Shown: piece by piece, positions 7,795-16,556 of the stretch
Layout of the letters: each line of letters begins with the position of its first letter
Position numbering within the stretch: the stretch's first letter is position 1
NCBI GenBank assembly: GCA_040902705.1
Contig: JBBDWT010000015.1
Coordinates: 1 to 51,974, forward strand
Source of the DNA: Acidimicrobiia bacterium
GTDB taxonomy: Bacteria; Actinomycetota; Acidimicrobiia; IMCC26256; PALSA-555
Direction: 5' to 3'
Length of the DNA: 51,974 nt
Notes under the pieces: generated by a model
What the model saw: only the letters and a program-made list of their open reading frames with translations
Databases searched by the model: none
Told to the model about the DNA's origin: nothing
Made by a program: the position numbers and the translations under genes

Positions 7795-8478
7795 TCAGTC
7801 GTGCGTGGGATCAGTGCGCGCGAGTGACAACCGCCGGTTCGCCGCGTCGAGCACGGCGCGGACGATCGCGTCGTCCGGACTGTGGTGCACGATGGCCGAG
7901 CCGGCGAGGTGGCGCTCGAGCGGCATCTCCACGGAGACGAGCGTCACGATCGCGACGTCTTGTGGACCGACGTGTGCGATCTCCGCTCCGACGACGTCCA
8001 GGGACCTCGCGGCGTCGTGGAGCTGCCGCAGCGCGTCAAGCGTCGCGGTGGCGACCAGGCGCGGCCGGACCATGGTCGCCGCGGTTCCCTCCGCGTACCC
8101 GGTCGCTTGCGAAGCGCCCTCGAGCGTGACCCTGATCGACGTGCGGAGCTCGACCGTGCTCGCTTGGATGCCCAGGACGCGCACCCGAACCGCCGGAAGG
8201 GCTGCCGGCGCGCTCGTCGACGAGTCACCGTTCGGGGTCAGCTGGACGACGGAGACGATCCGGCGATCGATCTCGAGACCGAACGACGCAAGGGCGACGG
8301 ACTGGACATCTCGCACGACTTGCTTCGCGTGCTTGCCGGTGTGGGCGAGGACGTGGATCTCGAGTGGGCGGCCGATGTCGTCCGCCACGATCCGGACCGC
8401 AGCGACATCAGGAAGGCGGTGCAGTTCCGCTTCGACCGCGTCCACGTCGAGCTCGGCCGTCTGCTGTTCGTCGGACAT
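7795..8478 (-). CDS. hypothetical protein (227 aa), first gene of the glycosyltransferase operon
   Basis: Clean ORF with an acidic N-terminus. It lies 20 nt upstream of the GT gene. The translation is coding-like and non-repetitive (LPDVAAVRIVADDIGRPLEIHVLAHTGKHAKQVV...). I recognise no family. Confidence 0.6.
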   Translation of the reverse strand: MSDEQQTAELDVDAVEAELHRLPDVAAVRIVADDIGRPLEIHVLAHTGKHAKQVVRDVQSVALASFGLEIDRRIVSVVQLTPNGDSSTSAPAALPAVRVRVLGIQASTVELRTSIRVTLEGASQATGYAEGTAATMVRPRLVATATLDALRQLHDAARSLDVVGAEIAHVGPQDVAIVTLVSVEMPLERHLAGSAIVHHSPDDAIVRAVLDAANRRLSLARTDPTHD

Positions 8479-8815
8479 TCCCCGCTCCCCGTCACTCTTA
8501 TGCCGATTGAGCGTCTACGCCCACGCAAGAGGATACGGAGGGCGGTCGAACGTGACAGGGACTCCCGAGTTCGCGCGGAGAGTGGTCATAGTGATGCCTT
8601 GGGTCTTGCGATCCGGCTGGGGCGCGGTGACACTTGTGAGGCTCCTGTGAAGCAGGATGACTGGTCTTCCCTAGGCGGGGAGGTGGAGAGGGGACTGGAC
8701 GAAGCGGGCAGGATCTCGGCATAACCAGGGGCTGAAGAGCCTCGAAGCGGAGCGTCACCTCATCGGTAACTAGTTGCGCCGGCGGGAGTTCCCCAATGAT
8801 TGGGGGGGATTCGCT

Positions 8816-8905
8816 GTGAAGAGGGTGTTCGCACGTCTTGCCATTATCGGTTCGAGCATTGCTGCGCTGCTGCTTGCAGGTGGCGCTAGCCGCATCTGGC
8901 GGTAA
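8816..8905 (+). CDS. candidate 29-aa small membrane/signal-like peptide upstream of the HD-domain genes
   Basis: Own reading; it is below the ORF-track cut-off. GTG at 8816 is preceded by GGGGGGA 8 nt upstream, and TAA is at 8903-8905. Translation: VKRVFARLAIIGSSIAALLLAGGASRIWR (basic N-end, one hydrophobic helix). No homology evidence is possible here. Confidence 0.3.
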   Translation: MKRVFARLAIIGSSIAALLLAGGASRIWR

Positions 8906-8959
8906 ACCGTGCAAAGGCGATAGCCGAGATCCTGCCCAGTTCGTCCGATCCCGAAGCCA

Positions 8960-10285
8960 ATGACAGCGACCCGAGATCGCCTACTGACGGTTCTTTGTAT
9001 TGGCGTGTTCACGGTCGCGGTCGCGTCCGCTGTTGTTCTGGCGATTCTTGGGCCCAGTCCCGATTTCGTAGCGCTCGCCATCTTCGTCGCGCTCTCAGTC
9101 TTCGCCGCCGACACGAGCGTTGTGTTGCCCAACGATTCGGCGCTTAGCGCGAGCTTCATGCTGTGCGTCGCGTCGGTCGTCGTCTTCCATGGCGATGCGC
9201 AGTATCTCGGACCACTCATTGTTGGCGCCGGGGCCGGCGTCTACCTGCCGCACTTGCGCGAACACGAGTGGCGAAAGGTGCTGTTCAACTCGGGCAGCCT
9301 CGGTCTATCGGCCCTTGCCGCAGCAGCGATCTACGGCGTTGTTCCGAGTGCTGTTCTTGAGTCGGTCCCGGGCGAGCTTGCCGCGGCGATTCCGACGGCT
9401 CTCACGTACTCGCTCGTGAACTACTTGTTGCTGACCGTCGTACTCGCTCTCCACGAGAACCGTCCACTCACGAAGGTGGCCGACGAACTCTGGCTCGGCG
9501 ACCTCCAGATCTATCCGTTCGCGATCATGGGTGTGCTGCTTGGTGAGTTGTACCTGGATCTCGGAGCATGGCTGGTGCCGTTGTTCGTGGCGCCAATCCT
9601 CATCGCGCGAGCGGCATTCGCTTCGTATCTCGCGCTGCGCGAGGCACAAGAAGCGACGCTTTCAACCCTGATCCGTACGCTCGAAGCAAAGGACCGTTAC
9701 ACGGCGGGTCATGTCGAACGCGTGGCGACGTATGCCGAGTTGATCGCCGTCGAGCTCGGGTTCCGACACAGCCAACTCGTGCGGCTCCGCTACGCAGCAC
9801 TCCTCCACGACATCGGCAAGCTCGTCGTGCCGAACCAGATCCTCAACAAGCCGGGTCGCCTGACGGAGGCGGAGTTCGCTCAGATGCGGCGGCACGAATC
9901 TGCATCCCTCGACATGCTTCGGCGCATCGACTTCCTGGCGCCGGTGGCGCCGAGTCTCGAGGCCGGGGCCGCAGGCGACCGCTCCGGGCCCGTGGAGGCA
10001 CGAATCATCGGTGTCGCCGATGCATTCGACGCCATGACATCCACGCGGGCCTATCGACGCGCGCTCAGTCAAGAGGTCGCGTTCTCCGAACTCCGAGGGA
10101 AGGCAGGCACGCAGTTCGACAGCGCGTGCGTCGAGGCCTTGATCACGGTCATCGAACGAAGTGGCGATCGCTACGGCGCCGGGCACGAGGTCGAAGTGGC
10201 CGACTACGCAGTGCCGCCGCCGGTAGCGGGGCTCGGTTCGGCTGGCCTCGGTGACCTCGAGCGAGAGCAGGGAGTGAAGCAGTGA
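8960..10285 (+). CDS. polytopic membrane protein with a C-terminal HD-domain (HD-GYP-related, GYP absent) phosphohydrolase
   Basis: 441 aa. The first ~230 aa are multi-TM. They are followed by EAKDRYTAGHVERVATYA...AALLHDIGKLVVP...LNKPGRLTEAEFAQMRRHE...GVADAFDAMTSTRAYR. This is the HD-GYP-superfamily layout, but the GYP loop is missing. Confidence 0.85.
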   Translation: MTATRDRLLTVLCIGVFTVAVASAVVLAILGPSPDFVALAIFVALSVFAADTSVVLPNDSALSASFMLCVASVVVFHGDAQYLGPLIVGAGAGVYLPHLREHEWRKVLFNSGSLGLSALAAAAIYGVVPSAVLESVPGELAAAIPTALTYSLVNYLLLTVVLALHENRPLTKVADELWLGDLQIYPFAIMGVLLGELYLDLGAWLVPLFVAPILIARAAFASYLALREAQEATLSTLIRTLEAKDRYTAGHVERVATYAELIAVELGFRHSQLVRLRYAALLHDIGKLVVPNQILNKPGRLTEAEFAQMRRHESASLDMLRRIDFLAPVAPSLEAGAAGDRSGPVEARIIGVADAFDAMTSTRAYRRALSQEVAFSELRGKAGTQFDSACVEALITVIERSGDRYGAGHEVEVADYAVPPPVAGLGSAGLGDLEREQGVKQ

Positions 10286-11466
10286 GCCGGAGAGTTCTGC
10301 TCGTTGCGATCGCGCTCGTCGGCTGTCTCCTGGCCGGTGCTGCCTCGGTAGCTGGAGCCAAAGAGGCGCTTCCTGACCTCATCATTCTCGCGACTGCGCT
10401 CGTCGTCGCAGAGCAGTTCGAACTGCGGCCGTACAACCGCGCGGCGATTCCGCTTTCCTTCGCCGGCGTCATCGTTCTGGTTCGCGCCGCGGATCCCGCC
10501 GAGTTCGTGGCCATCGTTGCGGTGGCATACATCGTGGCGGTAGCGCTTCGGCCCGAACCTAGCGGTCTCTCGCAGCGATGCGCCCTCTACGCGGAGCGGA
10601 TCGTCGAAGCCGTTGGTGCCGGCATCTTGTTCCATTTCGTTCTCGAGTTCGCCGAGAGTGAGGATGCAAAGGCGATCGTCCTCGGCGGCCTTGCTGTCGC
10701 CGCTGCCTTCGAGATCCTCATCGCCGATCTCGTCGTGCTCATTCGCGATCACAGGATCGCTCCGGTACGGGCGCGTGGCGCAGACGTCGCGCTCGTGACC
10801 TCGGGGATGCTGATGGCTGTCGGATATGACGGGATCGGCGGCGTCGGTGGGATCGGTCTGTGGGGCCCGCTTCTCTTCTCGATCCCCCTGCTGGCGGCTT
10901 GGTACTCGTTCGAGCTCCTGGCGTCGACTCGCCGCAACTTCCAACAGACCATCGAAGCCCTTGGGAGCGCCGCCGAGCTCGCCGGGCTTGTACGGCCTGG
11001 GCATGTCGAACGGGTAGCCGAGCTCACGGTGGCGATGGGCGACCAGTTGGGCATGTCCGAGACCGAGATCGAGCAGCTGTCGACTGCTGCGTTGCTGCAC
11101 CACCTCGGCGCGGTGTGCCTCGACGCGCCTGGTGCGGGAGCGCAACTCGATCCGGGTGCCGTCGCCGAGGCGGGAGCAACAATGCTCCGCGCGAGCGAGG
11201 TGCTTGCACCTGCGGGAGACATAGTCGCAGCAGAACCCTCGTTGCATCGCCCGCCGACGGCACACCCGCAGCCCGAGTCTGCGCTGTCCGGACAGGTGCT
11301 CAAGGTGGCAAGTGCGTTCGACGAGCTCACCGACGGTCGGGACGAGCACGCGTCGTGGGCGTTGGAAGCGCTCTACACCGGCCCGCTGTACGTCTACGAC
11401 GGTCGGGTTGTCGGAGCCCTGGAGCGCGTGCTCGACCGCCGGGGCGTGCTCGTCGCCCGCGTCTGA
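10282..11466 (+). CDS. paralogous polytopic membrane protein with a degenerate HD-like domain
   Basis: The GTG at 10282 overlaps the upstream stop (GTGA). Architecture matches the previous gene. The metal-binding HD dyad position reads AALLHHLGAV, and the other conserved His/Asp positions are largely lost (GHVERVAELT is retained). Confidence 0.75.
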   Translation: MSRRVLLVAIALVGCLLAGAASVAGAKEALPDLIILATALVVAEQFELRPYNRAAIPLSFAGVIVLVRAADPAEFVAIVAVAYIVAVALRPEPSGLSQRCALYAERIVEAVGAGILFHFVLEFAESEDAKAIVLGGLAVAAAFEILIADLVVLIRDHRIAPVRARGADVALVTSGMLMAVGYDGIGGVGGIGLWGPLLFSIPLLAAWYSFELLASTRRNFQQTIEALGSAAELAGLVRPGHVERVAELTVAMGDQLGMSETEIEQLSTAALLHHLGAVCLDAPGAGAQLDPGAVAEAGATMLRASEVLAPAGDIVAAEPSLHRPPTAHPQPESALSGQVLKVASAFDELTDGRDEHASWALEALYTGPLYVYDGRVVGALERVLDRRGVLVARV

Positions 11467-12035
11467 TTGGTGCGTCGCGAACCCTGGGTGCGGTTCGCTC
11501 CGCGCCGCCGATGTCGAGTGCCGTAGTACACGAGCTCGCAGATCCCGACGGCCATGATCAGATCGCCGAACGACACGACGCTGTCGAGCGGCTCGGGCAG
11601 CACGATGGTGTCCCCGAGAACGCCGAGCAGATCGTCGTCGGTCTCCGGTCGGTGCTTCACCGTCTGCTCGATCGTCTTCTCGATCCGGTTTCCCTGTGCG
11701 TTGTTCTCGATGTTCACCGTGGGCATGCCTTGGTTGAGCCCGATGACGAGCGCGTTCAGGCCGATCCCCACGGCAATCACACCGAACCCGCGCGTCTGGA
11801 GGTTCACGAAGCAGAAGGAGAGGATGAACGCATACGAGACCATCAGCAGGCCGTAGCCGACGGTCTCGATCTGGTCCGCGTCGAACTCGACGAACTCGAG
11901 CGCGATCTGAATCGCGAGTCCCGCGAACAGGAGCCAGATGCCGGCGAAGCGGAGCGCCGTGAGCTCCCGAAAGTCGCCCCATGTCACGATGACGATGAGG
12001 ACTGCAGCACCGATCGTCAGGACCAGGAGCCACAC
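11394..12035 (-). CDS. DUF5317-like small polytopic membrane protein with an Arg/Ser/Thr-rich C-terminal tail
   Basis: 213 aa. Four to five TM segments are followed by NQGMPV...IVLPEPLDSVVSFGDLIMAVG, which is the pattern I associate with DUF5317. The last ~40 aa (RHRRRGANRTQGSRRTNQTR...) overlap the 3' end of the convergent gene by 73 nt. Confidence 0.6.
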   Translation of the reverse strand: MWLLVLTIGAAVLIVIVTWGDFRELTALRFAGIWLLFAGLAIQIALEFVEFDADQIETVGYGLLMVSYAFILSFCFVNLQTRGFGVIAVGIGLNALVIGLNQGMPTVNIENNAQGNRIEKTIEQTVKHRPETDDDLLGVLGDTIVLPEPLDSVVSFGDLIMAVGICELVYYGTRHRRRGANRTQGSRRTNQTRATSTPRRSSTRSRAPTTRPS

Positions 12036-12068
12036 GGGGTCAACCTAGCGGGGCACGCCCGCGTTGCG

Positions 12069-12872
12069 ATGCCTACGATGCCTACGATGCCCGCGGTGGC
12101 CGAGCTCGAGTACCACGTCGCTGACGGTATCGGACGTCTGACGATCAATCGTCCCGAACGGCGCAACGCTATGTCGCAGGGCGTGCTCGAAGGATTGCTC
12201 GAAGCGCTGACGCAAGCACGAGACGACGATCGGGTGCGAGTCGTCGTGCTCACGGGCGCCGGCGATGCCGCGTTCTGCGCCGGTGCCGATCTCGGCGCGA
12301 TGGCTGCCGACGCCGGCCCGATCGCTTCGCACGATGGGCGGGGCCTGCTCGCGGACGTGTTCCACGCGCTGTGGGGCTTGGGCAAGCCGACCATCGCCCG
12401 GGTTCGGGGGTTCGCTCTCGCGGGTGGGTTCGGGCTCGCGATGTCGTGCGATCTCGTGATCGCATCCGATGATGCTCAGTTCGGGGCTCCTGAGATCAAC
12501 GTCGGACTGTGGCCGTTCATGATCACCGTTCCGTTGCTCCGCTCGATGCCACCCCGGATCGCTTTGGAGCTCATGACGACCGGACGACGAGTCGACGCAC
12601 GCGAAGCCGCACAGATCGGCTTCGTGAATCGCGTCGTTCCGGTCGTCGAGCTCGACCAGGTCGTCGACGGCTTCGCCGCGGATCTCGCCGCGAAGTCGCC
12701 ACTGGTGATGCGACTCGGACGAGATTCGTTCTACCGAGCGCTGGAGATGCGATCCGATGATGCGCTCGACTACCTGCAATCGATGCTCACGGTGACGTCG
12801 CTCTCGGAAGACACGGAAGAAGGTGTACGTGCATTCGTGGAGAAGCGTGCCCCCGAATGGCGAGGCCGATGA
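12069..12872 (+). CDS. enoyl-CoA hydratase/isomerase (crotonase) family protein
   Basis: Tail of ORF 10860..12872. Motifs: RPERRNAMS, VVVLTGAGDAAFCAGADL, ARVRGFALAGGFGLAMSCD. Three in-frame ATGs at 12069, 12078 and 12087 arise from a 9-bp tandem repeat. Confidence 0.88.
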   Translation: MPTMPTMPAVAELEYHVADGIGRLTINRPERRNAMSQGVLEGLLEALTQARDDDRVRVVVLTGAGDAAFCAGADLGAMAADAGPIASHDGRGLLADVFHALWGLGKPTIARVRGFALAGGFGLAMSCDLVIASDDAQFGAPEINVGLWPFMITVPLLRSMPPRIALELMTTGRRVDAREAAQIGFVNRVVPVVELDQVVDGFAADLAAKSPLVMRLGRDSFYRALEMRSDDALDYLQSMLTVTSLSEDTEEGVRAFVEKRAPEWRGR

Positions 12873-12874
12873 CT

Positions 12875-12928
12875 CGCGTGTCTGCAGACTCACGCGCGCT
12901 GCGCGTGTGACACGCCTTTTCTGAGTTT
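12875..12928 (+). terminator. cluster of mutually exclusive GC hairpins ending in a T-tract (terminator/attenuator-like)
   Basis: Three stems share arms: CGCGTG(12875-80)/CACGCG(12891-96), CACGCGC(12891-97)/GCGCGTG(12901-07) and GCGTG(12903-07)/CACGC(12911-15). They are followed by CTTTTCTGAGTTT. The cluster sits immediately after the crotonase stop at 12872. Confidence 0.4.
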
Positions 12929-13004
12929 CCCCCGTAGACATTACGAAGGCGCGTCGGTAGGTTCGACGGTGCTTCAGGGGCAGCGGGGGAAGCTGGGAAC
13001 TCTG

Positions 13005-13709
13005 ATGGATTCATTCGGCGATGCAGCTCCGGAGGAACTCCACCTCCTCATCGCGCAGTACCGCGACGATGCCTACCGATTGGCGCGTCGCCTCTCGCGA
13101 AGTCAGTACGAGGCGGAGGATCTCGCCCAGACCGCGCTGCTGAACGTGCTCCGGCGGGCGGAGTTCATCGTCGACGAGACGAAGATCCGGTCGTACCTGC
13201 TCACTGCAGTCCGGAACGTATGGCGGAACCAGCTCCGTGCACGCTCGAATCGACACATCGTCGGTTCCGACGTCGCCGAGATGATCCCGTCGGACGACCT
13301 GCTCCCGGAAGAGCAGGTGCTCACGGTCTTGGACGCCGCGCTTGCTTCCCGGGCATATGCGTCGCTCTCGCACACGAGCCGCGAAATCATTCGCCTGCGC
13401 TATGTCGAGGCGCTCGACTACCACGACCTCGCGGCTCAGCTCGAGATCACTCCAGTCGCAGCGCGACAACGTGCTCACCGAGCTCGCGAGGAGCTGGTCA
13501 GCGCCTGCATGGAGCTTGTGGCGGAGAGCGGAGAGGGGGCCTGCCGACAGACCCGCGCGCGTCTCGGTCGGTATCACCGCGGACTGCTCACGAGGAAGGC
13601 TCGCGCCGAACTGGCGGGTCACCTTGAAGCGTGCGCGCGTTGTGTCAATTGCTACGAGCAGATCGTCGATCTCTACGGGTCGCGCATTGATCCACGGAGC
13701 GATGCGTGA
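13005..13709 (+). CDS. ECF-type sigma-70 factor with a C-terminally fused ZAS (zinc anti-sigma) domain
   Basis: ORF 12969..13709; the ATG at 13005 is preceded by GGGGGAAG. Region 2 reads EDLAQTALLNVLRR...YLLTAVRNVWRNQLR. Region 4 reads REIIRLRYVEALDYHDLAAQLEITPVAARQRAHRAREEL. This is followed by C-x25-H-x3-C-x2-C (ACRQ...AGHLEACARC), the ZAS ligand pattern. Confidence 0.8.
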   Translation: MDSFGDAAPEELHLLIAQYRDDAYRLARRLSRSQYEAEDLAQTALLNVLRRAEFIVDETKIRSYLLTAVRNVWRNQLRARSNRHIVGSDVAEMIPSDDLLPEEQVLTVLDAALASRAYASLSHTSREIIRLRYVEALDYHDLAAQLEITPVAARQRAHRAREELVSACMELVAESGEGACRQTRARLGRYHRGLLTRKARAELAGHLEACARCVNCYEQIVDLYGSRIDPRSDA

Positions 13710-14896
13710 GTGACGCGACGCTTGATCGAGACGTTCGCGTCGTTGCTGCGGGTTACGGCGACTCGCTTCGCTTCCGCGTCGTGGTCGCGGTCTACTCCGC
13801 AGCAATTGCCGCCGCAGCGGTGTTCGCGGCTGTCACGGGTAGCGACGCTGATTGGGTTCCGGTCTTGTTGCTCGCCGCGCTCTTTGTGTTGGCTGAGCAT
13901 CGCGACCGCGTATTCACCGATGAAACCGGACTGAGCGGAAGCATCGCTGTCGCACTGTCGGCCGCGTACTTCGTCGCAAGCGACGGTTGGGTTGGTGGGG
14001 CCTTCTTCGTTGGTGCTGCTGGCGGTTTGTACGTGCCCCACCTGCATCACAGGGCATTCTCGAAGATCATCGTGAACTCCGCTTCGTTCGGCCTGTCTTC
14101 TCTAGCGGCAGCTGCCTCGGTCTTCGTTATGACGGAGCGGAGTAGTTCAGCGTTAGCCATCGCGATGTCTGTGGTACTCGCGACCGCGGTCTACTGGTTG
14201 ATCAATAGTCTGTTGCTCGCCGTCGCGACATCGGCGCTGAGCCGCGAGCCTGTGCTCGGGGACGTCGCGCAACTCGTTCGGTCCGACACGGTGATGCTCG
14301 TGTTCGGCCTCGGTGGGGCCATCTGCGGTGTCGTGATGACCGAGGTGGGGACGTGGACCGGGATCGCCACGCTGGTCGCGCTGCTGGTCGCGCTCGACGT
14401 GTTCGTCATCTCGGTTCCTGCGGGCTTGACCGTCCTCCGATCGGCGTGGGCCGTCATGCTTGCGCGTGGCGTGTCAGGGGGCGTCGCCGGGACTGTCGGT
14501 GCGTGTGTCACGCGGGTGGTCTCGATCTCGGTGCTCGGCGCGATCACCGGCTTCGCTGCCGGCATGGCCGCCGGCGTCGTCATCGTCGTGTTGATCCTCG
14601 GGGCGAGGTTGATCGTGAGCCAGCGGCGAGTCGATCCCGCACTCGTGGGCGGACTCGTCGTGATCGAGGTCGCATTTCCCGCGATCGCAGCAACGGCGGG
14701 AGTGGTGACGTCGCTCGCCGGATTGCGCGCGGGGCTCGTCGTCGCATCGGCGCTCGTGGTCGCTGGCTCGGTCGCAGTCGCGGTCCGCCGTCGGCGTTCG
14801 AAGGCCGAGCGGCCCGCCATCGAAGACGACACGCTGATGGCGGCGGTGGTCGAGGCAATGCTCGACGGCTTGCCCAGCCCCAGCCGCGATCGCTGA
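13706..14896 (+). CDS. polytopic membrane protein; its N-terminal module is paralogous to the TM module of the two HD-domain proteins
   Basis: The GTG at 13706 overlaps the sigma stop (GTGA). 396 aa with about 10 hydrophobic segments. GAAGGLYVPHLHHRAFSKIIVNSASFGLSSLAAAASVF aligns with GAGAGVYLPHLREHEWRKVLFNSGSLGLSALAAAAIYG in the 8960 gene. There is no soluble output domain. Confidence 0.7.
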   Translation: MSDATLDRDVRVVAAGYGDSLRFRVVVAVYSAAIAAAAVFAAVTGSDADWVPVLLLAALFVLAEHRDRVFTDETGLSGSIAVALSAAYFVASDGWVGGAFFVGAAGGLYVPHLHHRAFSKIIVNSASFGLSSLAAAASVFVMTERSSSALAIAMSVVLATAVYWLINSLLLAVATSALSREPVLGDVAQLVRSDTVMLVFGLGGAICGVVMTEVGTWTGIATLVALLVALDVFVISVPAGLTVLRSAWAVMLARGVSGGVAGTVGACVTRVVSISVLGAITGFAAGMAAGVVIVVLILGARLIVSQRRVDPALVGGLVVIEVAFPAIAATAGVVTSLAGLRAGLVVASALVVAGSVAVAVRRRRSKAERPAIEDDTLMAAVVEAMLDGLPSPSRDR

Positions 14897-14948
14897 CACT
14901 CCAGGCACTCGAACGCGCCTCGTCGTGGCGCGTGCGAGGATTGCCGAC

Positions 14949-16556
14949 ATGAGTTCCGAACCGGATGCTCCGGCCGGCCCGAGCGCGACCGGCGGCGGAG
15001 AAGTGCACGATTGGGGCCCGCTCGTCGACGAGCTCGATCGGCGGCGCGAGCAGACACTCAAGATGGGTGGCGGCGACCGCATCGAGCGTCAGCACACGCT
15101 CGGCAAGCTCACCGTCAGGGAGCGGCTCGAGCTGCTGCTCGATCCTGGTTCGTGGGTCGAGTACGGGATGCTCGCCGACAGCATGGACGCGACGTACGAG
15201 GGTCGCTTCCTCGCCGCCGACGGTGCGGTCACGGGGATCGGCGCGATCGATGGCCGGCGAGTTGCGATCGCGGCCTACGACTTCACCGTCCTCGCGGGCT
15301 CCATGGGGCGTGTCGGGGAGGTCAAGATCAAGCGCATGCGCGAGGCGGCGATCCGCCAGCGCATCCCGATGGTCTGGCTCCTCGACTCCGCCGGCGCGCG
15401 CATCCAGTCGGAGTCGGGGTCCCAGTTCGCCGGCGCAGGCGACCTCTTCCGCGAGCAGGTCGCGATGAGCGGTGTCGTGCCGATGGTGGCGGCGATGCTC
15501 GGCCACTGCGCAGCCGGAACCGCGTACATCCCCGGGCTGGCCGACTTCGTCCCGATGGTCAAGGGGACGTCGTCCATGGCGCTGGGCGGACGCCACCTCG
15601 TGAAAGCGGCGGTCGGCGAGGACGTGACCGAGGAGGAGATGGGCGGGTCTGCCGTCCACACGAAGATCTCCGGTTGCGCCGACCTCGAGGTCGCCGACGA
15701 CCGTGAGTGTCTCGATGTCGTGCGTCGCTACCTCTCGTTCTTTCCCTCGCACAACCAGGAATCGCCACCGACTCGCGTGACGAACGACCCCGTTGACCGC
15801 CGGGTCGAAGAGCTCTACGAGATCGTCCCGACGGCACCGCGTCGCGCGTACGACGTCCGGAAGGTCATCGAGGCCGTCGTCGACGACGGCGAGGTGCTCT
15901 GGATGAAGCCCGACTGGGCGAAGAACCTCGTCACCGGTCTGGCGCGCATCGGGGGTGATTCGGTCGGCATCGTTGCCAACCAGCCCCTGGTGCTCGGTGG
16001 CGCGCTCGACGTGAACGCAGCCGACAAGGCCGCGCGCTTCGTCTGGCTGTGCGACGCGTTCAACATCCCGCTCGTGTTCCTCCATGACGTCCCGGGCTTC
16101 ATCGTCGGGTCCGCCGTCGAGAAGCAAGGGATCATCCGGCACGGAGCGAAGATGCTCTTCGCCGTCTCCGAGGCGACGGTTCCCAAGATCAGCGTCGTCA
16201 TGCGGAAGAGCTACGGCGCCGGCTACTTCGTGATGAACGGCTACGCGTACGAACCCGACTACCTGGTCGCGTGGCCGACCGCCGAGATCGCGGTGATGGG
16301 TCCCGATGGCGCGGTGAACATCATCCATCGCCGGACGCTCGAGGAGGTGCCGGAGGACGAGCGCGCAGGCAAGCGCCTCGAGCTGGCCGAGGAGATCCGC
16401 AAGAACATCGACCCGTATCTCGCGGCGGGGCACGCGCTCGTCGACGACGTCATCGATCCTGCCGACACCCGCATCGCGATCTGGCGTGGCCTGCAGGCGG
16501 CACGCGGCAAGCGGGTGACACGCCCCTGGCGCAAGCACGGTGTCCTTCCCGTCTGA
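14949..16556 (+). CDS. acyl-CoA carboxylase carboxyltransferase (beta) subunit
   Basis: ORF 14925..16556; the ATG at 14949 is preceded by AGGA. RIERQHTLGKLTVRERLELLLDPGSW...GSMG...ADKAARFVWLCDAFNIPLVFLHDVPGF is typical of PccB/AccD5/MccB-type proteins. Confidence 0.9.
   Translation: MSSEPDAPAGPSATGGGEVHDWGPLVDELDRRREQTLKMGGGDRIERQHTLGKLTVRERLELLLDPGSWVEYGMLADSMDATYEGRFLAADGAVTGIGAIDGRRVAIAAYDFTVLAGSMGRVGEVKIKRMREAAIRQRIPMVWLLDSAGARIQSESGSQFAGAGDLFREQVAMSGVVPMVAAMLGHCAAGTAYIPGLADFVPMVKGTSSMALGGRHLVKAAVGEDVTEEEMGGSAVHTKISGCADLEVADDRECLDVVRRYLSFFPSHNQESPPTRVTNDPVDRRVEELYEIVPTAPRRAYDVRKVIEAVVDDGEVLWMKPDWAKNLVTGLARIGGDSVGIVANQPLVLGGALDVNAADKAARFVWLCDAFNIPLVFLHDVPGFIVGSAVEKQGIIRHGAKMLFAVSEATVPKISVVMRKSYGAGYFVMNGYAYEPDYLVAWPTAEIAVMGPDGAVNIIHRRTLEEVPEDERAGKRLELAEEIRKNIDPYLAAGHALVDDVIDPADTRIAIWRGLQAARGKRVTRPWRKHGVLPV

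Follow-up and report, generated by a model that had tools for sequence, protein, structure and literature searches.

Membrane sensor domains of the MASE9 type (Pfam PF20972) consist of eight predicted segments, two of them short. Their outer loops are short and poorly conserved, and charged residues lie within the membrane, where ligand binding has been proposed; the ligand is not known, and the single member studied was poorly expressed (bioRxiv 10.1101/2021.11.05.467447). The same survey describes MASE9 as a promiscuous sensor that stands ahead of HD-GYP and GGDEF-EAL outputs. Here we describe a locus at ~8,690-14,900 of JBBDWT010000015.1, a complete contig of 51,974 bp from an Acidimicrobiia metagenome-assembled genome (MAG), called the window throughout, in which divergent MASE9-like modules are found in two membrane proteins, A and C, and probably in a third, B. 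A and B continue into domains of the HD-GYP family, C is encoded beside an extracytoplasmic function (ECF) sigma factor to which a zinc-binding anti-sigma (ZAS) domain is fused (sigma-ZAS), and across homologous loci the sensor parts of A and C come in two classes of cassette that switch together.

Protein A is most like the MASE9-HD-GYP proteins (PF20972 plus PF13487), such as TM1467 of T. maritima and HdgA/Vnz_24090 of S. venezuelae, in which an N-terminal eight-segment membrane domain is likewise followed by an HD-GYP-family domain (bioRxiv 10.1101/2021.11.05.467447). Unlike in these proteins, the HHE and GYP motifs are missing from A and HD is replaced by HH in B; C, which lacks any enzymatic output, has the ECF sigma factor as its partner, an architecture absent from that survey. 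The sigma factor in turn resembles those of groups ECF48, ECF52 and ECF53 and SCO4117, which are actinobacterial, carry a C-terminal ZAS-type zinc finger and have no separate canonical anti-sigma gene; the extensions of ECF48/52/53 run into one or two transmembrane (TM) helices, often with an extracytoplasmic domain, and proteolytic release is thought likely (PMC8999054). The sigma-ZAS protein of our locus differs in having no TM helix, its membrane part being a separate, translationally coupled protein with 12 TM helices, C. Multi-pass membrane proteins encoded beside an ECF sigma factor and controlling it are known for Caulobacter sigmaF (the six-TM NrsF/DUF1109) and for B. subtilis SigM (YhdL-YhdK), and there the sigma-binding domain belongs to the membrane protein or to a separate anti-sigma protein and is not fused to the sigma factor, unlike the ZAS domain here.

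The cassettes recall a different kind of system. In streptococcal comC-comD and staphylococcal agrD-agrC, a small precursor gene lies directly upstream of the gene for a polytopic receptor, and polymorphism extends from the 3´ end of the one into the 5´ sensor part of the other, in a few discrete, ancient allelic classes. In our locus, the left cassette similarly spans the 3´ end of a short open reading frame (micro-ORF) and the sensor part of A, within near-identical backgrounds. Unlike in those systems, the called genes of the syntenic loci include no histidine kinase, processing or export genes, a second, non-adjacent cassette (the ZAS tail plus C) switches in concert, and secretion of the micro-ORF peptide is putative.

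Membrane modules of proteins A, B and C

The earlier note on this DNA, made from the sequence alone, had proposed that A, B and C begin with the same membrane module; its coordinates and gene calls were correct (Table 1). For A and C, the similarity is clear. BLASTP aligns them with 29% identity over 186 amino acids (aa) (E=5e-17, composition-based statistics), in a region that contains the stretch quoted in that note (GAGAGVYLPHLREHEWRK in A, GAAGGLYVPHLHHRAFSK in C), and hhalign with orthologue profiles aligns 202 columns at a probability of 99.9% (E=5e-32). The charged motif that had been pointed out in all three proteins (AADTSVVLP / AEQFELRP / AEHRDRVF) is indeed common to them and is placed in register by hhalign.

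The window copy of A matches Pfam MASE9 at 15.3 bits (E=0.019), below the gathering score of 24.3 bits, and the window copy of C gave no match to it. Orthologues of both exceed that score: P0059, P0050 and P0055 in the A family (26.9, 25.6 and 25.1 bits), and P0041 (30.6 bits), the best of the seven of 35 C-family members that match at E<=1. In the AlphaFold model of C (pLDDT 84, pTM 0.81), residues 21-236 form eight helices (21-44, 50-69, 77-92, 97-114, 118-145, 149-179, 183-213 and 216-236), of which the third is short and the fourth short and broken, with extracytoplasmic loops of only 2-5 residues. Its layout thus includes the two segments too short to span the membrane, an intramembrane hairpin, that characterize MASE9. 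Placement of the module ahead of a cytoplasmic output, a further MASE9 trait, is seen in A, in B only if its module is accepted, and not in C. Since orthologues exceed the gathering score and the eight-segment layout fits the published description, profile and model alike point to a divergent MASE9 domain, a known promiscuous sensor and not a new one, as the module of A and C. The single shared sensor that the earlier note envisaged gives way to paralogous ones, probably three. The HD-GYP survey was the sole relevant paper that a literature search on MASE9 found. The DUF5317 protein of the locus and the C-terminal half of C were also considered as further copies of the module and rejected at hhalign E values of 0.02-0.9; the two served as negative controls.

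Membership of B in this group is less certain. BLASTP finds no similarity between B and C, and its matches between B and A are confined to the HD region plus the final helix; none of 30 B-family members matches Pfam MASE9; and hhalign with shallow profiles gives E=0.03-0.4 against A and C, no better than negative controls. With a diverse profile of 63 sequences, hhalign aligns B to the A module over 196 collinear columns (E=4e-5, probability 70%). This alignment scores 38.3; the reversed profile reached 9.9, and the highest of 60 block-shuffled nulls was 25.8. A link from the B N-terminus to MASE9 through intermediates was sought and not obtained: a search of 1.84 billion representatives with the B profile returned just 182 proteins at E<=0.001, and ten distant ones scanned against Pfam gave HD-type matches or nothing, with MASE9 in none.

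The AlphaFold2 (AF2) model of B (pLDDT 88.7) has eight helices in the same order as those of C, with the charged motif after helix 2, and the best membrane-fold matches of both models are the S components (RibU, FolT) of energy-coupling factor transporters. These small helical bundles bind small molecules inside the membrane; they have six helices, as against eight in the modules of B and C, and no sequence similarity to them. Over ~175-195 columns, the B and C models reach TM-scores normalized to the target (TMt) of 0.48-0.58 against 5kbw, 3p5n and 5d0y, with weak E values of 0.07-3.3. The individual matches are 5kbw_B (TMt 0.48, weak E=0.07) and 3p5n (TMt 0.56) for B and, for C, 5kbw_B (Foldseek probability 0.66, TMt 0.58, root-mean-square deviation 5.0, weak E=3.3).

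The B N-terminal domain might be an unrelated eight-TM domain, so that the module would occur only twice, as the lack of BLASTP similarity to the membrane parts of A and C, the 0/30 MASE9 matches, the control-level shallow-profile alignments, the best hhalign probability of merely 70% and the narrow, MASE9-free profile search would all suggest. We regard this as rather unlikely, given an alignment well above both the shuffled nulls and the unrelated membrane controls, the identical number and order of helices with the motif after helix 2 in the same place, the top membrane-fold matches shared with C, and the fact that B lies next to A and continues into the same family of domain. On this balance of alignment and model, B is probably a remote MASE9 relative, and the module proposed for three proteins stands firmly for two of them.

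Two co-switching sensor cassettes

Comparison of homologous loci (designated by L numbers) reveals that the N-terminal ~185 residues of C fall into two classes, marked by AEHRDRVFxDETGLSGS (type 1, present in the window) and AHREAxxxDETAxSGS (type 2). Identity in this half is 28% between types and ~50% within them, whereas the C-terminal half is 55% identical regardless of type, and in seven type 1/type 2 partner pairs the C-terminal halves are 85-99% identical. For L013 (type 1) and L010 (type 2), the DNA flanks agree at 98.1% of positions in the 3.3 kb upstream and at 99.7% in the 1.65 kb downstream, and the ~590 bp between them have no detectable similarity. The same block recurs in L015/L014, L017/L016 and L005/L007. 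This right cassette extends from ~30 codons before the sigma stop to codon 184-188 of C, with the corresponding position in L005/L007, which in the window is from ~13614 to 14260 (C codon ~185). The last third of the ZAS domain is included; in three sister pairs, the N-terminal part of the sigma factor is 99, 95 and 83% identical, and the last 30 aa only 47, 60 and 58%.

A second, left cassette covers the sensor part of A. Codons 1-175 of A are 37-47% identical between two classes, alpha and beta, and 64-80% within a class, and the remainder of the protein is 74-92% identical regardless of class. In two independent pairs, this cassette extends from 15 nt before the stop codon of the micro-ORF to codon 175 of A; the window carries type alpha, at ~8891-9484 (A codons 1-175 are 8960-9484). 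According to hhalign, residue 175 of A and residue ~185 of C are homologous positions at the end of helix 6. From these alignments, TM helices 1-6 are the exchangeable unit, with TM7-8 and the output held constant.

We considered whether the alternative forms could come from a silent second cassette or a paralogous locus. A tblastn search of type-2 N-terminal halves against the window matched only C and A, and a species-level genome scan found one locus per MAG. With one locus per MAG and no silent copy in the window, alpha and beta, like types 1 and 2, are alleles and not paralogues, and each cassette exists in two ancient allelic forms. Such dimorphism is not described in the MASE9 survey (bioRxiv 10.1101/2021.11.05.467447). 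The module of B is not dimorphic, the B region lying within a block of 90% identity in L017/L016.

The two cassettes are matched. Alpha accompanies type 1 in the window and in L001, L004, L005, L017 and L018, and beta accompanies type 2 in L007, L014 and L016. The last four to five residues of the micro-ORF product are themselves dimorphic (SRIWR or SKSLR). They do not vary within a type among lineages with differences of 20-35% elsewhere, and they agree with the type of C in 12/12 loci, including loci without A. Overall, the type of A or of the micro-ORF matches that of C in 12 of 13 loci (counts 7/1/0/5; Fisher p ~0.005, relatedness ignored). A tree built from B and the N-terminal part of the sigma factor, both outside the cassettes, interleaves the types and shows four sister pairs of opposite type. 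Both cassettes have switched in L017/L016 and L005/L007, the two pairs that can be typed for both, and the other two pairs (L013/L010 and L003/L006) differ in C type. In L017/L016, the intervening 4 kb are 90.3% identical, as compared with 90.6% and 92.9% for the outer flanks. The matched types do not stem from gene conversion between A and C, to judge by the identities between their cassettes, which are 28% for alpha and type 1, 26% for alpha and type 2, 33% for beta and type 1, and 23% for beta and type 2. Co-inheritance of the cassettes is the best sign, though an indirect one, and suggests that the HD-type and sigma branches are functionally coupled.

Output domains and a model for the locus

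Both HD-type domains are degenerate. The domain of A has sequence matches in the Protein Data Bank (5z7c, 9rbz and 4mcw), and A and all of its orthologues keep the H, HD, H and D motifs; the HHE..DGxGYP block is absent from every one of them in the alignment, and the intact HD hydrolase that A had been taken for is not what the motifs describe. For HnoD, a degenerate HHE motif goes together with a loss of hydrolysis (bioRxiv 10.1101/2021.11.05.467447). Because HHE and GYP are lost, as in degenerate HD-GYP proteins without c-di-GMP hydrolysis, A is by analogy unlikely to act as a standard c-di-GMP phosphodiesterase; it more probably binds a nucleotide or has an altered hydrolase activity. All full-length orthologues of A also share a C-terminal tail outside Pfam domains, VPPPVAGxGSAGLGDLExE (10190-10285, residues ~411-441). 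In B, which the earlier note rightly called degenerate, an invariant HH (LLHHLG) replaces HD, and KPG, the third H and HHE/GYP are absent, so that neither A nor B has the full HD-GYP set (H, HD, H, HHE, DGxGYP, D). The B domain is highly conserved in alignments and is matched by Foldseek to DvhD (9rc0) and PmGH (4mcw) with probability 1.0; motifs and model together mark B as a pseudo-enzyme with an HD-GYP fold.

As the earlier note had it, C carries no soluble enzyme domain and its gene is coupled to the sigma gene through a GTGA overlap. The protein is, however, more than the module, since it has four additional TM helices, 12 (8+4) in all, and an acidic cytoplasmic C-terminal helix with the conserved motif DDDxLxAAVxEAxLDGLP. 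Both additions are kept in the distant relatives L031, L032, L033 and L036. The C proteins of these four loci (L031 1615-2814, L032 391-1560, L033 6438-7604 and L036 37-1377) form a third N-terminal class, AENRDRxFGDETSISxS, with the same 8+4 architecture and acidic helix, and are encoded directly 3´ of a ZAS-fused sigma factor.

The ZAS domain of the sigma factor occupies residues ~190-246 (zf-HC2 match 192-225), with C193...H219-LEA-C223-AR-C226, and the protein ends 20 residues after the CxxC with no TM helix or hydrophobic segment; in NCBIfam it matches the generic sigma70-ECF superfamily only. Translational coupling leads us to propose that C and sigma-ZAS are made in fixed proportion. 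Upstream of the sigma gene (12873-12968 and orthologous regions), a conserved CGTGACGCGCCTTTT is followed by a promoter-like TAGACA-N17-TAGGTT, and no ECF-type autoregulatory promoter (GGAAC..CGTC) was recognized in these regions.

The genes for sigma-ZAS and C are never found apart, and A has been lost in four lineages: gene A is cleanly absent in L003 (6269-6486) and L010 (6415-6561), is cut to its HD part in L006 (5795-6508), without micro-ORF or sensor, and is deleted along with most of B in L008 (7213-7629). Sigma-ZAS and C are intact in all four. A frameshift or an assembly indel divides the sigma-ZAS gene of L005 (9564-9800) between two reading frames.

These features can be combined into a model, the most parsimonious one, to which we give about even chances as a whole. 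Three paralogous intramembrane sensors of MASE9 type would feed different outputs: the module of A an HD-GYP-family domain without HHE and GYP, the remote module of B a pseudo-enzymatic HD-GYP fold, and the module of C its four further TM helices and acidic cytoplasmic helix. The fused ZAS domain would auto-inhibit the sigma factor in cis, and C would hold soluble sigma-ZAS at the membrane or free it, depending on what the MASE9 pocket binds. A would read the same cue as C and turn it into a nucleotide-signalling output. The cue-specific part would be TM1-6, and the matched combinations, alpha with type 1 and beta with type 2, would reflect a strain-variable specificity common to A and C. The ligand, the contact between the sigma factor and C and the direction of regulation are what we infer; the ZAS tail within the right cassette and the universal sigma/C overlap fit a direct contact of sigma-ZAS with C, a fit that is not proof. 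Of the earlier proposal that a shared sensor feeds both HD-type and ECF sigma outputs, what stands is a module of the same kind ahead of an HD-type domain in A and a degenerate one in B, and beside sigma-ZAS in C; the single sensor and the intact hydrolase do not. That proposal presupposed profile similarity and co-localization of the genes, and both were found, the similarity being strong for A and C.

Several points weigh against this model. The homology of B lies below the usual level of confidence. L028, the sole exception to the matching, combines alpha with type 2, either by recombination or as a chimera of the assembly. Alleles that co-exist can be joined artificially in metagenome assemblies, and the sample available for cassette typing is small and phylogenetically structured. 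No parallel specificity residues are apparent in the alignments, alpha resembling types 1 and 2 about equally and beta being closest to type 1. The differences in the ZAS tail between types are modest, and the tail may belong to the cassette for no other reason than that the closest conserved DNA in which recombination can resolve is found there. As A is dispensable in several lineages, the sigma branch can do without it. An ECF-type promoter common to the sigma gene and the micro-ORF/A/B operon was considered and rejected, as alignments show two different housekeeping-like promoters.

Some of these points would be expected if two unrelated systems were merely neighbours, with C as the membrane anchor of a split anti-sigma factor, A and B as an independent HD-GYP-type pair, and the matched types as a product of hitch-hiking and population structure. 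The persistence of sigma-C where A is lost (L003, L010, L006 and L008), the enoyl-CoA hydratase and DUF5317 genes between the operons, the separate housekeeping-like promoters without a common ECF motif and the mixed types of L028 all agree with this, as does the divergence of 1.9% between the cassettes of L013/L010, against 0.3% downstream, which fits linked old haplotypes. We nevertheless consider it unlikely, for on the tree of the intervening genes the types intermingle, and both cassettes switched jointly in two independent sister pairs; in L017/L016, the intervening 4 kb are as similar as the flanks, such that recombination separates the cassettes and the combinations still persist; and the micro-ORF tail continues to match the type of C where A is gone.

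Matched types could also mark a co-evolving interface and not a shared ligand, if the modules of A and C, possibly with the micro-protein, formed a membrane hetero-oligomer. HD-GYP domains are commonly dimeric, the matched combinations are kept, and the charges of the motif after helix 2 are roughly complementary, alpha lacking the Glu that type 1 has and beta having Glu residues in the place of the type 2 His-Arg. In four lineages, however, C works in the absence of A, and this explanation seems to us quite unlikely. That the dimorphism protects against phages, toxins or other attack at the surface, and does not reflect signalling specificity, is very improbable. Surface receptors under frequency-dependent selection do typically show ancient, balanced classes of alleles with sharp boundaries of recombination, but here the modelled outer loops have only 2-5 residues, the variable block spans the whole of TM helices 1-6 as well as the cytoplasmic ZAS tail, and two different proteins switch together.

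The module and its pairing with HD-GYP domains are known already. For the pairing with a ZAS-fused ECF sigma factor, for the degenerate outputs and, above all, for the two co-switching cassettes, we found no description in the literature searched. If the model of paralogous sensors with shared specificity is true, an ECF sigma factor would be controlled by a ZAS domain in cis together with a 12-TM MASE9 partner, by neither sequestration by an anti-sigma factor in trans nor the presumed proteolytic release of the ECF48/52/53 type. The natural swaps of TM1-6 against constant TM7-8 and output would mark the site of specificity and offer ready-made chimeras for the search for a MASE9 ligand, and matched switching of two separated cassettes would imply strain-level signalling types in an uncultured, environmentally abundant class of actinobacteria.

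Micro-ORF, RNA leader and gene neighbourhood

The micro-peptide gene suspected in the earlier note is a conserved micro-ORF (Table 1), kept in 13 loci with 72-86% aa identity. Its variable sites are distributed 17/8/27 over the three codon positions, which points to coding constraint, and it is retained where A (L003, L010), or A and B (L008), have been deleted. The predicted product has the shape of a signal peptide, with a basic N-terminus, a 17-residue hydrophobic core and then AGGA|S, which could be a signal-peptidase site.

Table 1. Positions of genes, domains and the RNA leader at the locus, numbered from the first letter of the window
Feature	Position	Strand	Details
Structured RNA leader	8693..8950	+	25-bp long-range helix, arms 8693-8719 and 8924-8950, enclosing the micro-ORF
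Micro-ORF VKRVFARLAIIGSSIAALLLAGGASRIWR	8816..8905	+	29 aa; one hydrophobic helix; strong Shine-Dalgarno sequence GGGGGGA
Protein A	8960-10285	+	441 aa
Protein A, N-terminal MASE9-like 8-helix module	8960..9637	+	residues 1-226; MASE9 E=0.019, hhalign with C 99.9%
Protein A, HD-GYP-family domain	9668..10285	+	HD_5 (PF13487) 88 bits, 6.5e-25
Protein B	10282-11466	+	394 aa
Protein B, N-terminal 8-helix membrane module (probable MASE9 relative)	10282..10926	+	start overlaps A stop (GTGA); hhalign, AF2, fold matches
Protein B, degenerate HD-GYP-fold domain	10999..11466	+	HD_5 in 30/30 members, best 2e-7
DUF5317 membrane protein	11394..12035	-	PF17248 E=1.3e-24; syntenic in all loci
Enoyl-CoA hydratase	12096..12872	+	NCBIfam 4.9e-68; syntenic between DUF5317 and sigma gene
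ECF sigma factor (sigma2 + sigma4) with fused ZAS	12969..13709	+	Sigma70_r2 2.3e-12, Sigma70_r4_2 3e-8, zf-HC2 2.7e-6
Protein C	13706-14896	+	396 aa
Protein C, N-terminal MASE9-like 8-helix module	13706..14413	+	residues 1-236; BLASTP and hhalign with A
Protein C, four extra TM helices and acidic cytoplasmic helix	14429..14869	+	residues 242-368 and 374-388; alignment, AF2

The micro-ORF is enclosed by an inverted repeat that is likewise kept in 13 loci. RNAalifold and pair counts over 12 aligned loci found compensatory changes in 9/25 pairs of the long-range helix and in 4/6 pairs of a further hairpin with a GAAG loop, and another hairpin pairs with, and sequesters, the Shine-Dalgarno sequence of the micro-ORF. 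All five structure measures beat 500/500 shuffles and all slid controls. The repeat (TCCTGCCC..TTCGTCC) was considered as a protein-binding palindrome or an inverton, but its G-U intermediates and compensatory changes speak for a helix in RNA. Rfam returned no RNA family at E<=1 for 8300-15000. The leader is therefore a candidate new cis-regulatory RNA, supported by covariation and placed around a translated micro-ORF. A generic scan of 8400-9000 for promoters and terminators found nothing; a conserved sigma70-like promoter, TCTTGCG-N17-TGAGACT, lies just upstream of the leader.

The micro-ORF could encode the precursor of a signal or a membrane co-factor, whose type-specific tail, possibly freed by signal peptidase, would be recognized by the matching TM1-6 of A and C. 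This would constitute a pherotype-like self/non-self system feeding the nucleotide-signalling and sigma/ZAS branches, with expression of the peptide gated by the RNA leader. We rate this idea as decidedly improbable. No gene for a kinase, an exporter or a processing enzyme was called in the syntenic loci, and the nucleotides of the tail may be constrained by a small RNA hairpin.

The recurrent gene order in many Acidimicrobiia contigs is glycosyltransferase, hypothetical protein, micro-ORF, A, B, DUF5317, enoyl-CoA hydratase, sigma-ZAS, C and carboxyltransferase, the last of which also lies downstream of C in the window. The neighbourhood check that had been suggested bears out the co-localization of HD-fused and sigma-coupled versions, with the arrangement kept in ~20 Acidimicrobiia loci. 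C homologues were found in Acidimicrobiia only (48 matches in a search of 5.8 billion clusters), and B is 100% identical to WEC34_01120. The 4-bp GTGA start/stop overlap of sigma and C (13706-13709) has a counterpart between A and B (10282-10285). Among distant relatives whose C is just 31-41% identical, the order enoyl-CoA hydratase, sigma-ZAS, C, the start/stop overlap and the architecture of C are all kept, and the 4-bp overlap or immediate adjacency of sigma and C persists down to 31% C identity.

A DUF5317-like protein, as the earlier note supposed, is present; no paper mentioning DUF5317 was found in a literature search. Its gene and that of B are convergent and overlap by 73 nt at their 3´ ends (11394-11466), an overlap that recurs elsewhere, for example in L010 (7679-7751) and L014 (3688-3760). 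The enoyl-CoA hydratase gene is syntenic, and any part it has in the system is conjectural. Divergent from the micro-ORF operon is a gene for a 227-aa protein (7795-8478, minus strand), syntenic in all loci at 59-80% identity, for which Pfam and NCBIfam gave no match. Contig L039, from another sample, is 99.1% identical to the window, and no cassette exchange separates the two, only raised divergence in the C-terminal part of C. Identity dips there to 95.7-96.3% (14491-15090, the four-TM part) and is 96-97% at 8192-8790, the promoter and leader region upstream of the micro-ORF.

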